Shown: positions 302 to 63,973, numbered from the stretch's first letter. The stretch is 64,000 bases of DNA from Diadema antillarum (GCF_040938485.1 NW_027271421.1:438567-502566), one strand, 5' to 3'. Notes: a model not told the origin generated them from the letters alone. Translations and numbers: made by a program.

Positions 302-478
302 AGATGTGCTTGGAGTGTAGACGTTGAGATAGAGACAATCCTCCGATCTGTTCGGGTAGAGAGGGTCAGGAATTTGTACGCAGGCTGGGGCAAACTCGGT
401 GGCGTTTCTCTCGCCCGTCCATGGAGTCTTGCTTTCTGGCTTAGCGAAACGAGCAGGTGGATTGGCGTAGGGAACCCC
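302..478 (-). CDS. ChE-like paralog P1 exon 2 (GVPYANPPARFAKP...[15 protein letters not shown])
   Basis: Reverse-complement translation gives the FLGVPYAxPP and EDCLYLNV motifs. Acceptor ctccag|GGG and donor |gtgagt. Exon is 177 nt in phase 0, like exon 2 of the other paralogs. Confidence 0.7.
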
Positions 479-640
479 CTGGAGTGTCAGATGACATACA
501 TAAGTTTTGCAACAGCAATACTTTCATCAGTTCCATCAAAATACGAAATCTAACTCAGGCAATGACAATGGAGCTCATGCGTTAATTTTACATATCAAAC
601 AAGAGAAGGTTGAAAGACTATAAAGGCACCTTTGTGAACT

Positions 641-667
641 TTGATTTGATTTGATTTGATTTGATTT
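641..667. repeat. (TTGAT)n microsatellite
   Basis: ttgatttgatttgatttgatttgat read directly. Confidence 0.8.
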
Positions 668-868
668 ATTTCTGCTTAATTCCGTTTCATCAAGATATGA
701 TTGTGTACAAGTCAATTATGACAAACAGTATATCAACACATAGTTTTTAGTACAAAACAAAACAAATACAAACAGCTCAGGGAACTTGAACAGAAGGGTC
801 TCCAAAATAAGCCGAGGCTTGACGGTATGGAGACCCTATACTTAGCTACTCTGGATAGAATAAGGGAT

Positions 869-892
869 AGAGAGAGAGAGAGAGAGAGAGAG
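869..892. repeat. (AG)n microsatellite
   Basis: agagagagag... run read directly. Confidence 0.8.
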
Positions 893-1139
893 GGAAGGGT
901 AGGGGGAAAAGGGACAATTACAGAGTGTATGTGTACAGCTCCAACTACTTTACTTTAAAAGTAATGATAATAAATGTAATACGATAATAATATTAAAGTT
1001 AACACGTTCAGTTGCCTTTCCCGTAGTAATGACCGAATATGCACTGTGAAAAGAGTAATGAATGAATGCAAAGCATTCTACATGAGGTTATCTGTCATGA
1101 AATAACAAACTATATCGTGGTTAAATGTGCACAGTAATG

Positions 1140-1800
1140 GTAAGGCACATGGTATACATACATAACGTGCTCATATACATAATATACATATGTGCCTATC
1201 CTATACATACACATACATACCCATATTTATGATATATATATGGATAGATAAATAAATCGATGTATGTATGCACACATACATGCATCATGTATCACGTACA
1301 TATTTATATACATTTGATTATAATACAATAAAGATATCAAAATGTTATCCTTGGGAATACTGCTTGAGGAGGTGAAGTTTCACAGCCTTCTTGAATGAAT
1401 ACATAGTTGTCATGTTTTTAATTTCGTGTCTGAGTCTGAGTGTCTGATAGAATGATGCGCGAGTGCAGTTTTGGGGTTAAATAAATGTAAATTTGTGGAT
1501 TGTCTGGTAGGATAGGAGTGAATCTCTGAATTTGACGGAAATATTCTGCTAAATATTGGAGGCAAGAGATATGACTTGAGGCAACACATAAATACAGCTT
1601 TTTGGAGAAAGTTTATGTCATTTATCTTAACTCTTAAGAGATTTAAGCTGAAAAAACAAGGGGTCGGTGTGATCTCGAGAGCGTGCTCGACTGCACACTC
1701 AATTGCTCTTTTCTGCAGGAGAAGTATACGGTCTGTGATACATTTGTGGGTTGCCCAAATAATGTTGCAATACGATATATATGGCAGGATCAAAGCATTA
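1140..1800 (-). mobile_element. CR1-clade LINE 3'-terminal fragment (ORF2 C-terminus plus 3'UTR with (TATGTA)n-like tail)
   Basis: ORF 1410..1793(-) contains ILPYISYCNIIWATHK...LQKRAIEC and ...HSYPTRQSTNLHL. These resemble the LEYCsvvW / VQRRA / YxTR tail motifs of CR1/L2 ORF2. The minus-strand downstream side (1140-1400) is a TATGTA-type microsatellite tail. It lies in P1 intron 1. Confidence 0.45.
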
Positions 1801-2562
1801 TACAGGTTAAATAATATACACGAGTTGGAAACTTTTACACTGCAGATATACCATATCTATAACACTGTGTATCATACGTCGGGGAAGGCTGTTTTTTGTT
1901 ACATTATTCGATTATGATGTCTAATCCCATTCGATACCATTGCGTAGTGCCAATTAGGGCTTCTAGCCCATCAATGTGATTGATCACACCGATAAACGCC
2001 TAACAACGTGCAGAAAAATCAATCCCATTCGTTGAGAAACATGAACTCCATTGAAAACAACATCTATTCTGAATAAAGATTGAGAAGAGACCGTCTGTAG
2101 AACACATGAAAAGCAACGACACAGTATATCTGGTCATAATGGTCACTAGCTTATTGGAACTAGAATGACTAGTTTTCTGAAATACGAAATCAATTGAACT
2201 GTGGTCTGACTTTCTACAATAAATGCGATGTTATTTATATCCAAAATAATATGTAGGACCGCGTAAAATGCATTTGGAGAAGCCATTCGCAGCGGAAGAC
2301 AATTGGATCCGACAGTATGTCATAGTGGCTTGTAAAATGACTGCGAAAAATTAAGGCGGTGCACGTATGATATATGAAGACTTACATGGTTGGCATAACG
2401 ACGAAAAACGCTCACTGTACTAATGTACTTGAAACTATATAGTGGCATTACTATAATCATCATCAATAGCCATCCGTAAAACTTCGATATAGAGTGCATA
2501 ATATACACGCATACCTTGGTATTGAAAGAAAAAGAGATTACGGATAGAACAGCAACCCTTAC

Positions 2563-61900: not shown

Positions 61901-62000
61901 ACGGCAGCAACGAAAAATAGCAGAGCAACCTCTCAGCCTGGCCTACCTTCGGCATTTCCATGTACACACAAACACACTGCACCAGATTTTTCAGAACGAG
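58913..62000 (+). mobile_element. Degenerate LINE copy in P5 intron 5 (paralogous to 39982-44400; 5' part missing)
   Basis: ORF pieces 58913..59443 (endonuclease: ...LITLGDFKARVSTDYAS), 60104..61289 (RT: FVDLTKAFDTV, LFADDCALY) and 61342..61683 (...MRCLRNLLHVKWQGKVPDTEILQ...HVLRMADEHLPK). About 92% nucleotide identity to the P4 copy. Relative to P4, about 1.17 kb (P4 39690-40858) is absent. Confidence 0.65.
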
Positions 62001-63071
62001 GATCGGACTGATTAGCCATCTTCGCACCCACGGTACGTAGTGTTACTGGAAGTTATGGTCGTGTTCACATGCGAAGGACGAACATCATCATCAAATTATT
62101 GAATTGCCATTGCAAAACAGTCATTGTATACATGCAGGTCACTTGGAATTCTTTCCACCTTTTATGGTTGTGTTGTTTTATTGGTGAAGTTGGAAAAGAT
62201 AAATAAAGCATAGAAGTTAATTGCAATCCAGAAGAGAAAAATGGGTAAGCTGGAAAGTAAATGGAAGGACATATGTAATGAAGAGCACTCTTAATATGGC
62301 TGCATGTAACTACACAGGAAATGATTTATACTGAGTTTGTCTTATGTTGAGTAACATGGTGTGGAGAATTTGGAGATTTTTTCTTCAGATCCGTATGTAA
62401 CAATTAAGAAGCAGAGAACACCAACTACCTTGATTGTATCAAGTAATGTATTTTTAAATGTGATTTGTATGTGTTTTTATCTTTTATTAATGCAATTGGA
62501 AAATGAAACCAAATCAAAGAGAGAGGGAGAAAATAAAAGGACGATTAAGCAATGTGAACAAGGAGAACTGAAACAACGGGCATGATAATGAACCGAATCA
62601 AATTACTCATATCACGGAACACCCTATAAGATACAAACATTGCAAAAACCCATTAGCAGGTTAATTAGTTTGTTCTTGTGAATGAAGCATGCATGTACAC
62701 CATGTACACGTGCAAATATTTACATTGGCAAGTACAACGACAAAAGATATTGTGGATCGTGATTTGTGAGAGCATTGCCCTAACAGAGAGTATAGTTTAT
62801 AGATTATGAAATTGAGAAATCATGTCATGGTACTTGCACTTGAACACCGCGGAAATTCTCTGACTGGTAAATTCGCAGACCTGTACAACAAAGTGTAAGT
62901 GTAAGTGTCTTGGTGCGGTATATTTGAAATTGTTTGTCACATTAATTTTCTCCGCTCAAATAAACTGATAATATAACAACAATATAACTTGATAAATAAT
63001 GATGAATCAACAGGTAATTATATTTCTTTTCTGTCACATTGATTACAGTTTTGTTAAAGAAAGTTTCACAC

Positions 63072-63190
63072 CTCCATGATTGCATGACTGAAATAAGGTC
63101 GACTCAGTTTTGAGAGGAGGTGAAAGCTCACGCTTCCAGATCCAGCGCTCACTCCAAAAATTGTGATTCTGTCCTTGTCACCTCCGAAGG
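63072..63190 (-). CDS. P5 exon 5 (nucleophile elbow variant: [40 protein letters not shown])
   Basis: Acceptor tcctcag|, donor gag|gtgtga. The motif reads GVSAG (codon GTG) where P4 has GESAG (GAG). Confidence 0.75.
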
Positions 63191-63378
63191 CTGAGGAAAG
63201 AGAATCATAGGATGGAAAAAGATAGACAGGTGATCATAATAAAATAAAAAATACAAATTTAAGAAAATAAAAAATGGATGGATGATGTATTCAAATATAG
63301 GCGGGTGAGTACTACTAGCAATGGGTAGGTCCTTTAAGGGTTAACTGGCTGACTTTATAAAGAGGAAGGAAAAAGAAA

Positions 63379-63470
63379 GATATATATATATATATATATA
63401 TATATATATATACATATATATATATATATATATATATACATATATATATATATAGAGAGAGAGAGAGAGA
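63379..63470. repeat. (AT)n(AG)n compound microsatellite
   Basis: Read directly. Confidence 0.8.
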
Positions 63471-63895
63471 GAGAAAGGACATTTATCAAAAACATGAGAT
63501 TCATGCCAGTATTCGAAATGGTTAAATCAGAAAGATTTGATAATCTGACTTAAATATGAAATATGACTGCAGTATTAATGAAGTACTGTGATTTGAACAA
63601 ACATACACACACACACATATACATATATCATAATTATTATTTAAAGCATTGTGTTCATGTACATATATCTGTCAGTCTTACAGTCTTATGGAAATAAGTA
63701 GACCCATATTCCTTTCAATTGTTACCGATATCATCTGAGATATTTCCACTGAATCCTGCAATATCTTGCTACCCTGCTGAACTACATTTAATGTGATTAT
63801 TAAAACAAATGGTTAATACATGAAATCAAGGAATAAATGCCATATCCATCCCAATATCAGATACCTATTTTGCTCTGATACCTGGGTATTATTAC

Positions 63896-63973
63896 CTTCA
63901 ATGTTAGTATAGACCCACTTGAGAGCTGCCACCTGATCCAGCATACCAACATTACCAGGAGCTTCTTCATCAG
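63896..63973 (-). CDS. P5 exon 4 (ADEEAPGNVGMLDQVAALKWVYTNIE)
   Basis: Identical splice context to P4 exon 4. Exons 1-3 lie beyond the window end. Confidence 0.75.

Follow-up and report, generated by a model that had tools for sequence, protein, structure and literature searches.

The 64,000-nucleotide stretch of the Diadema antillarum genome analysed here (GCF_040938485.1 NW_027271421.1:438567-502566; hereafter the window, with coordinates counted from its first letter) carries five same-strand, head-to-tail paralogs, designated P1 to P5, between positions 302 and 63973 of the minus strand, as established by motif scanning, tblastn and exon models. These genes very probably form a Diadema tandem array of secreted enzymes of the type-B carboxylesterase/cholinesterase superfamily, in which a WAT-like C-terminal tail is combined with a non-cholinesterase active site.

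The genes were first located by a six-frame motif scan for G-x-S-x-G, DEG/DEA, G-A-x-H and EDCLY, in which esterase-context motifs were present on the minus strand only and in the order of five successive genes. A tblastn search with a human BChE query likewise gave exon-sized, co-linear matches for five copies. A model of P4 was assembled manually, with open frames and splice sites as guides, its ten exon peptides were projected onto the window, and the exon boundaries were then refined. The complete genes P2, P3 and P4 consist of ten coding exons with uninterrupted open reading frames (ORFs) of 601-610 amino acids (aa), all splice dinucleotides in the window are canonical GT/AG (70/70), and the intron phases (0,0,1,1,0,0,2,2,1) are identical in every copy. 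The exon lengths in nucleotides (exon 1, 162; exon 2, 174-183; exon 3, 160; exon 4, 78; exon 5, 119; exon 6, 165 or 168; exon 7, 443-455; exon 8, 195; exon 9, 182) vary between copies only by multiples of three, and intron positions and phases are therefore the same in all copies. The array thus consists of adjacent paralogs on one strand with a shared exon-intron structure, separated by intergenic spacers of 2.1-4.6 kb, and AATAAA/ATTAAA candidates lie downstream of each stop codon. An earlier note on this DNA had described five minus-strand, head-to-tail copies, of which P1 and P5 are partial, with ten exons and common intron phases; the exon models bore this out, the outermost exon ends (302 and 63973) coinciding with its coordinates.

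All five conceptual proteins matched the Pfam family PF00135 (COesterase) above its gathering cut-off of 27 bits, in keeping with the earlier assignment to the type-B carboxylesterases. P2, P3 and P4 scored 425-430 bits over profile positions 2-515 of 515 (E~1e-128, with 2e-128 for P2 and 3.4e-128 for P4), the partial P5 scored 270 bits (E=4.6e-80) and the P1 fragment 87 bits (E=1.8e-24). The nucleophile-elbow signature F-[GR]-G-x4-[LIVM]-x-[LIV]-x-G-x-S-[STAG]-G was present in P2-P5 and in full-length P1, and the N-terminal signature [EDA]-[DG]-C-L-[YTF] (EDCLY) in P1-P4, the corresponding exon of P5 lying outside the window; both are PROSITE-type patterns. An NCBIfam search returned only weak, sub-threshold matches to bacterial hormone-sensitive-lipase-type models. 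In a sequence search of the PDB, the best 60 matches were all AChE or BChE, headed by Torpedo AChE with 309 bits, and the alignments extended as far as the Cys of the C-terminal T peptide. For P4, an AlphaFold2 model based on an alignment of 53 sequences reached a pLDDT (predicted local distance difference test) of 93.1 and a pTM (predicted template-modelling score) of 0.90 with a C-terminal helix predicted at residues 568-595, and in a Foldseek comparison with the PDB its top 50 matches were again all AChE or BChE (E down to 5e-58, target TM 0.85-0.91), in line with an alpha/beta-hydrolase fold of the cholinesterase/carboxylesterase type. Carboxylesterases ranked below AChE and BChE in both PDB searches. 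The proteins contain the COesterase domain and the tail only, with no transmembrane segment or extra domain. At the N-termini a hydrophobic core is followed by small residues at positions -3 and -1 (LNA/E, ASA/E, GES/A, SRA/R), features which fit signal peptides; the earlier claim of a signal peptide in each copy thus agrees with the N-termini present in the window, whereas the signal-peptide exon of P5 lies outside it.

Residues are numbered hereafter according to Torpedo AChE, from an alignment of the copies to that protein. The catalytic motifs of P2, P3, P4 and P5 are, respectively, GESAG, GQSAG, GESAG and GVSAG around the Ser, GFNKDEG, GSNRDEA, GFNKDEG and GFNEDEG around the Glu, and GAGH, GATH, GATH and GAAH around the His. 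S200, E327, H440, G118, A201 and W233 are kept in all assessable copies, and the six disulfide cysteines (C67-C94, C254-C265, C402-C521) are present in every copy covering them. The earlier note had placed the triad in every copy, which holds for P2-P5; the catalytic exons of P1 lie outside the window, and the full-length RefSeq protein XP_071499714.1 has S/E/H. Its motif patterns likewise describe P2-P4, but the P5 His motif, GAAHGE, falls outside GA[GT]HxE. Non-enzymatic cholinesterase-like proteins are common in the superfamily, and Johnson & Moore (2012; Comp Biochem Physiol D 7:83, PMID 22210164) is cited for the duplication and rearrangement that genes with a ChEL domain have undergone in invertebrate deuterostomes, so a non-catalytic, adhesion or scaffold role comparable to that of neuroligin, gliotactin or the ChEL domain of thyroglobulin was considered. 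Such a role is highly improbable here and was rejected, as neither the triad nor the oxyanion-hole motif is disrupted in any assessable copy, the PROSITE-type Ser and EDCLY patterns match, transmembrane segments and extra domains are lacking, and purifying selection has preserved the triad across saturated synonymous divergence (dS).

The residues which distinguish cholinesterases in the strict sense are missing from this otherwise conserved framework. Compared with AChE, 10-14 residues are missing from the omega loop between Cys67 and Cys94, and with them the choline-binding Trp84; this Trp is absent from P1-P4, from XP_071499740.1, which carries the N-terminal part of P5, and from every echinoderm and hemichordate relative among the matches aligned, where a long EMWNPN loop was found only in vertebrate BChEs. 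Of the 14 aromatic residues of the AChE gorge, 12-13 are lost, the remainder being W233 and, in P1-P3, W114. Positions 70, 121, 279, 288, 290, 432 and 442 lack an aromatic residue or are deleted in almost every copy (an exception being Tyr 288 in P2), and gorge positions 130, 330, 331 and 334 vary between copies. The peripheral-site residues Y70, D72, Y121, W279 and Y334 are not conserved, D72 being kept in P1 only; position 199 is E, Q (P3) or V (P5), and position 119 is G, S or A. As Trp84 and the aromatic gorge are lacking, the proteins, which do retain the three disulfides and the T peptide, are not cholinesterases in the strict sense, and the term 'cholinesterase-like' used in the earlier note was an apt caution.

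The array might nevertheless be a true expansion of acetyl-, butyryl- or propionyl-choline hydrolases serving cholinergic signalling, as AChE and BChE are its closest solved relatives in both sequence and fold, the tail with its terminal Cys resembles the T peptide, the three disulfides are of the cholinesterase type and the database names read 'cholinesterase-like' and 'acetylcholinesterase-like'. We regard this as quite unlikely, given that every copy, like all echinoderm relatives examined, has a short omega loop lacking Trp84, that only W233 (with W114 in P1-P3) is retained among the gorge aromatics, that the peripheral site is unconserved and that E199 is replaced by Q in P3 and V in P5. 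An identity as true AChE was rejected, since Trp84 and the gorge are absent. Judged from these residues and the tail, the proteins are probably oligomeric secreted carboxylesterases and not true cholinesterases.

Every copy with exon 10 in the window encodes, after a phase-1 intron, a T-peptide/WAT-like helix of ~38 residues, a feature unremarked in the earlier note. A T peptide was taken to be an amphipathic helix of ~40 residues with heptad aromatics (W10, F14, W17, Y20, W24, F28, Y31) and a Cys near the C-terminus. In the Diadema tails W10, Y/F14, W17, W24, F28, Y31 and C37 are in register with the Torpedo and human T peptides and position 20 is E, D or G, so that the tails preserve six of the seven aromatic positions and, except in P3, the Cys two residues from the C-terminus. 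When the last 51 aa of P4 alone were searched against the PDB, only AChE and BChE C-termini and the WAT peptide 1vzj were found at E<=0.0015 (E 3e-7 to 1.5e-3), with one unrelated match at E=0.23, and BLASTP of the P4 tail against the Torpedo T peptide gave E=6e-8. The helix predicted from exon 10 is thus shown by register and by similarity searches to be homologous to the cholinesterase T peptide (WAT domain). Cholinesterase tetramers are assembled by WAT helices around a proline-rich peptide, with inter-subunit disulfides formed by C-terminal cysteines (PMC8518539). The window contained no gene for a proline-rich (PRAD) partner, and no search aimed at such partners was made. On the other haplotig, outside the window, a 567-aa model of the P4/5 group, XP_071492945.1, reads through the intron-9 donor (...AFTGIFFEGIITSLYYML...) and lacks the T-peptide exon, which is reminiscent of the 'readthrough' AChE variants and could equally be an annotation artefact.

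The tail exon of P3 has a history of its own. It shares 93.7% nucleotide identity with exon 10 of P4/P5, whereas the remaining coding sequence shares 63-65% (binomial P ~5e-14), and the stretch at 20182-20292 in P3 is about 94-96% identical to 32917-33027 and 54689-54799; no comparable identity excess to P4/P5 was found for exon 10 of P2. This excess suggests a gene conversion that was confined to the T-peptide exon of P3. Furthermore, at ~20175-20185 a single T is inserted before the Cys codon of P3 (CTACCTGC to CTACTTTGT), and the resulting frameshift converts ...EPTC[NS] into ...EPTLSRISNLSKENVT, with loss of the tail Cys and of the usual stop and addition of 11 residues. The ending ...TC[NK]* is retained in the P3 allele of the other haplotig (XP_071492981.1) and in the D. 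setosum ortholog. The insertion is either a genuine variant specific to this haplotype or a sequencing error in a homopolymer.

Table. Coordinates of the five Diadema antillarum esterase genes, their exons, motifs and tail exons in the window
Feature	Position	Strand	Observation or basis
P1, 5' part (exons 1-2; remainder past the low window end)	302..2724	-	Exon 1 2724-2563 (ATG, putative signal peptide), exon 2 478-302; GT/AG
P2, complete, 10 exons, 602 aa	4832..17550	-	Identical to XP_071499715.1/XP_071499716.1
P2 exons	17550-17389, 15562-15389, 14958-14799, 10480-10403, 10162-10044, 9336-9169, 8403-7949, 6988-6794, 6121-5940, 4947-4832	-	
P2 motifs	GESAG 10127-10113; DEG motif 8289-8269; His motif 6942-6925	-	
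P2 exon 10, tail RDIDELEKDWQDSFSIWKTGLTGWQQEFEEYKQGSTCN	4832..4947	-	W-x6-W-x6-W spacing, F28, Y31, Cys two residues from C-terminus; aligns with Torpedo and human T peptides
P3, complete, 10 exons, 610 aa, C-terminal end frameshifted	20139..28949	-	Identical to XP_071499733.1
P3 exons	28949-28788, 27102-26926, 26151-25992, 25491-25414, 24942-24824, 24001-23834, 23264-22822, 21858-21664, 21042-20861, 20287-20139	-	
P3 motifs	GQSAG 24907-24893; GSNRDEA 23159-23139; His motif 21812-21795	-	
P3 exon 10, P4/P5-type tail, end frameshifted	20139..20287	-	Nucleotide identity to P4/P5 exon 10 (93.7%)
P4, complete, 10 exons, 601 aa	32907..50125	-	Hand-built model
P4 exons	50125-49964, 49254-49072, 48292-48133, 47723-47646, 45593-45475, 39482-39318, 37470-37025, 34513-34319, 33577-33396, 33022-32907	-	
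P4 motifs	GESAG 45558-45544; DEG motif 37365-37345; His motif 34467-34450	-	
P4 exon 10, tail DDISDIEKEWRESYDDWKTEMTAWQQAFEEYKNEPTCS	32907..33022	-	PDB search of the tail alone, BLASTP, predicted helix
P5, 3' part (exons 4-10; exons 1-3 past the high window end)	54679..63973	-	Exons 4-7 identical to XP_071499740.1
P5 exons	63973-63896, 63190-63072, 58722-58558, 57743-57298, 56154-55960, 55708-55527, 54794-54679	-	
P5 motifs	GVSAG 63155-63141; DEG motif 57638-57618	-	
P5 exon 10, tail DDMSDTEKEWRESYDDWKTEMTAWQQAFEEYKNEPTCN	54679..54794	-	AChE_tetra 17.2 bits, alignment

P4 and P5 are the closest pair, with 92.9% coding and 89% amino-acid identity, a dS of 0.16 and a ratio of nonsynonymous to synonymous divergence (dN/dS) of 0.32, whereas the other pairs share 56-74% coding nucleotide identity, dS being mostly saturated and dN/dS ~0.1 where estimable. 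The introns of P4 and P5 are co-linear, at ~67-94% identity and with many indels. The nucleotide identity of about 92% given for this pair in the earlier note is therefore correct for the coding sequence and not for the introns, while the much lower identity it reported for P2 and P3 agrees with our values. As these introns are common to both copies, together with the relic of a long interspersed nuclear element (LINE) in intron 5, the pair arose by a segmental duplication after the LINE insertion. Of the 47 amino-acid differences between P4 and P5, 13 fall at Torpedo positions 320-359, including the pocket residues 330, 331 and 334; they cluster after the catalytic Glu in exon 7 (P4 37365-37300, P5 57638-57570), where NKDEGTLIPYVSFPAYW in P4 faces NEDEGTFFLYGPFPDYR in P5, corresponding to Torpedo 330-340, which line the substrate pocket. 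The derived residues of P5 (GVSAG, FFLYGPFPDYR) are shared with a D. setosum ortholog and P4 keeps states found in other paralogs, so that the P4/P5 split predates the two species.

In a neighbour-joining (NJ) tree with 100 bootstraps, the Diadema sequences formed a clade of their own (81%) that was sister to the Strongylocentrotus and Lytechinus 'cholinesterase 1' proteins at 100%. Within it, the P1, P2, P3 and P4/5 groups were each joined by a D. setosum gene at 100%, P1 grouped with P3 (98%) and P2 with P4/5 (95%). By the distances of this tree the paralogs are nearer to each other than to the outgroup genes and, as the Diadema copies form their own clade, they are not one-to-one orthologs of the camarodont genes. 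The lineage-specific expansion by local duplication proposed in the earlier note is supported both by this phylogeny and by the introns and LINE relic shared by P4 and P5, and the array is an ordinary tandem expansion, specific to its lineage, within a family of enzymes that annotation already covers.

The closest database proteins are the RefSeq 'cholinesterase-like' and 'acetylcholinesterase-like' proteins of D. antillarum and D. setosum, followed by 'cholinesterase 1' of S. purpuratus and Lytechinus at ~60%. On exact look-up, our models of P2 and P3 agreed residue for residue with RefSeq XP_ proteins (accessions in the table), so that an independent gene prediction reproduces the two models exactly, and the 113-aa P1 fragment was 100% identical to the N-terminus of XP_071499714.1. 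The RefSeq proteins of P1, P2 and P3 map to a single D. antillarum contig of 1,264,214 bp, and near-identical alleles lie on a second, 2.94-Mb contig, which fits the published evidence that both haplotypes were retained: the standard assembly comprises 1.75 Gb versus ~703 Mb for the haploid genome, with 84% duplicated BUSCOs, at a genome-wide heterozygosity of 2.52% (PMC13511894). A second source likewise indicates that the standard assembly holds both haplotypes, and states that it was annotated by NCBI's pipeline (bioRxiv 10.64898/2026.05.24.727502). This retention of both haplotypes, with near-identical alleles on a second contig, raises the question of whether the duplication, especially that of P4 and P5, is an assembly artefact in which two haplotypes were placed in tandem. 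We consider this barely conceivable and rejected it, for the divergence is far above the heterozygosity: between P4 and P5 the coding sequence diverges by 7% and the introns by ~6-33%, with many indels, the derived residues specific to P5 recur in a D. setosum ortholog, and identity among P1, P2 and P3, as well as between them and P4/P5, is only 56-74%.

The RefSeq protein XP_071499740.1 is identical to P5 in exons 4-7 (63973-57298) and to P4 in exons 8-10 (34513-32907), and its 11 differences from P5 are all P4 residues. The exon coordinates suggest that it is probably a chimeric P5/P4 gene model which skips exons 8-10 of P5 and exons 1-7 of P4. Several observations weigh against the reading we propose or limit it. 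The intact 601-aa P4 is absent as a separate sequence from the protein collection, the RefSeq XP_ records are themselves model proteins, and P3 in this haplotype is without its tail Cys; as P4 is not annotated separately and P3 has lost this Cys, not every copy may be fully functional. The Pfam model of the tail, PF08674 (AChE_tetra), gave only 16.8-17.3 bits for P2, P4 and P5 (P2 16.8, P5 17.2; E ~0.004-0.006), below its cut-off of 25, and the Pfam search reported no AChE_tetra match for the tail of P3. The phylogeny is a simple distance tree, in which support for Diadema monophyly is only 81%, and the substrate class of the enzymes, including their predicted failure to hydrolyse acetylcholine, is something we infer from missing residues alone.

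A rival reading would make the array partly a gene graveyard, with P4 and P3 as the candidates for decaying or non-functional copies: the exact P4 protein is missing from the collection and its exons 8-10 are joined to P5 exons in the chimeric model, the dN/dS of P4/P5 is 0.32 as against ~0.1 in older pairs, and P3 has lost both its tail Cys and the normal stop through the 1-nucleotide insertion. However, the complete copies all have uninterrupted ORFs, canonical splice sites, an intact triad and intact disulfide cysteines, P4 retains the ancestral pocket states common to other paralogs, and the change in P3 is confined to the last residues. Partial decay of the array is accordingly judged unlikely.

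If the array does encode secreted, tailed esterases with a non-cholinesterase site, its products would be glycosylated enzymes of ~600 aa that leave the cell via their signal peptides and, with the triad intact, would be expected to act as serine esterases. The WAT-like tail may link them into disulfide-bonded dimers or higher oligomers, possibly around a proline-rich partner, and their substrates would be non-choline or broad-range esters of dietary, xenobiotic or signalling nature, the termination of cholinergic transmission not being among their predicted roles. The array very probably grew within the diadematoid lineage by successive rounds of local duplication: its older members, namely P1, P2, P3 and the ancestor of P4/5, predate the split of D. 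antillarum and D. setosum and evolve under purifying selection (dN/dS ~0.1), and P4 and P5 represent a younger segmental duplication that carried introns and the intronic LINE relic along. Substitutions between paralogs at pocket positions (E199 to Q or V, G119 to S or A, and the variable 330, 331 and 334) may reflect substrate diversification, with occasional gene conversion between copies, as in exon 10 of P3. A bolder and rather doubtful proposal would be that echinoids recruited the cholinesterase WAT/T-peptide tail for secreted esterases without choline binding, which would form a large family undergoing rapid diversification, the array encoding PRAD-organised, disulfide-linked oligomeric 'bioscavenger' esterases whose pockets diverge between neighbours (E199V, G119S/A, 330-334). 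Were this true, the WAT/PRAD assembly system would predate cholinergic specialisation or be independent of it.

Compared with known systems, the proteins most resemble the echinoid 'cholinesterase 1' and 'cholinesterase-like' RefSeq models of S. purpuratus, Lytechinus and D. setosum, to which full-length identity is 58-62% for camarodonts and up to 97% for D. setosum, and with which they share the short omega loop without Trp84, the triad, the disulfides and a WAT-like tail ending ...TCN. Their best matches among solved structures are the T-subunit forms of vertebrate AChE and BChE (Torpedo AChE 6euc, human AChE 4bdt, human BChE tetramer 6i2t; 309 bits, TM ~0.8-0.9), with which they have in common the triad, the oxyanion hole, the three disulfides and, in the T peptide, W10/W17/W24, F28, Y31 and Cys37. 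Unlike these enzymes, to which identity is ~31-34%, they have a loop 10-14 residues shorter and have lost Trp84, the peripheral anionic site and all but one or two of the 14 gorge aromatics. The ten coding exons and multi-copy tandem array of Diadema also differ from the few exons of vertebrate cholinesterase genes. The last intron, of phase 1 and directly before the T peptide, is presumably placed as in vertebrate ACHE, and the 182-nucleotide exon between introns 8 and 9 (phases 2 and 1) appears to match vertebrate ACHE exon 4 (170 nucleotides) with its T-exon junction.

The detoxifying carboxylesterases of the vertebrate CES1-5 and insect alpha-esterase clusters belong to the same Pfam family and consist of secreted or luminal glycoproteins without a choline-binding Trp that have expanded in tandem in individual lineages, with variation in the pocket. 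The Diadema copies share with them the lack of this Trp, the tandem expansion and the varying pocket residues, including the oxyanion-hole Gly at position 119, which we take to be equivalent to BChE G117 and blowfly E3 G137. Carboxylesterases are not known to have a tail of the WAT type, and those of mammals (CES) end in the endoplasmic reticulum-retention signal HXEL. For S. purpuratus, Saccoglossus, Ciona and Branchiostoma, Johnson and Moore reportedly described in 2012 both gene duplication and blurred boundaries between cholinesterases and carboxylesterases, and the Diadema proteins presumably fit such 'intermediate' enzymes.

Among the papers searched, none describes a Diadema esterase array, and esterases are unmentioned in the two D. 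antillarum genome papers (PMC13511894; bioRxiv 10.64898/2026.05.24.727502). Novelty is limited to the lack of a published description of these Diadema paralogs, the echinoderm 'cholinesterase-like' group being already named in databases. What the analysis adds, namely the pairing of a WAT-like tail with a non-cholinergic site, the conversion of exon 10 and the frameshift in P3, a probably chimeric RefSeq model and a P4 missing from the annotation, is useful and unsurprising for the family. For annotation, the analysis provides base-exact models of five D. antillarum esterase genes, flags one fused RefSeq model and recovers the intact paralog P4. That urchin proteins named 'acetylcholinesterase-like' are without the choline-binding site matters for ecotoxicology in which 'cholinesterase' activity or expression serves as a biomarker of neurotoxicity. 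How the features of AChE and BChE were assembled in deuterostomes is a further question, to which proteins that combine the assembly tail of a cholinesterase with the active site of a carboxylesterase contribute a data point.

No other gene was evident on either strand of the window by Pfam analysis of ORFs and by tRNA and Rfam scans. Over the whole window the tRNA and Rfam scans gave no match, and among 20 non-exon ORFs of at least 110 aa, Pfam detected only two reverse-transcriptase (RVT_1) fragments and one sub-threshold match to DUF5472. Intron 3 of P2 contains a relatively GC-rich 169-bp satellite (11217-13396; 12.9 copies, ~79-85% identity) with a higher-order period of 346 bp, which no Pfam, Rfam or tRNA match overlapped. 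Short AT-rich repeats of ~80 bp containing (AT)n occur in both orientations at 18022-18246 (P2-P3 spacer), 25095-25179 (P3 intron) and 63378-63454 (P5 intron), and may resemble miniature inverted-repeat transposable elements or merely be of low complexity. Intron 5 of P5 harbours a decayed non-LTR (long terminal repeat) retrotransposon on the plus strand (58889-61680), antisense to the esterase genes, with RVT_1 fragments in two frames (60595-61286). A homologous copy with 77-88% identity lies at the equivalent place in intron 5 of P4 (40855-43740), and the insertion therefore predates the P4/P5 duplication.

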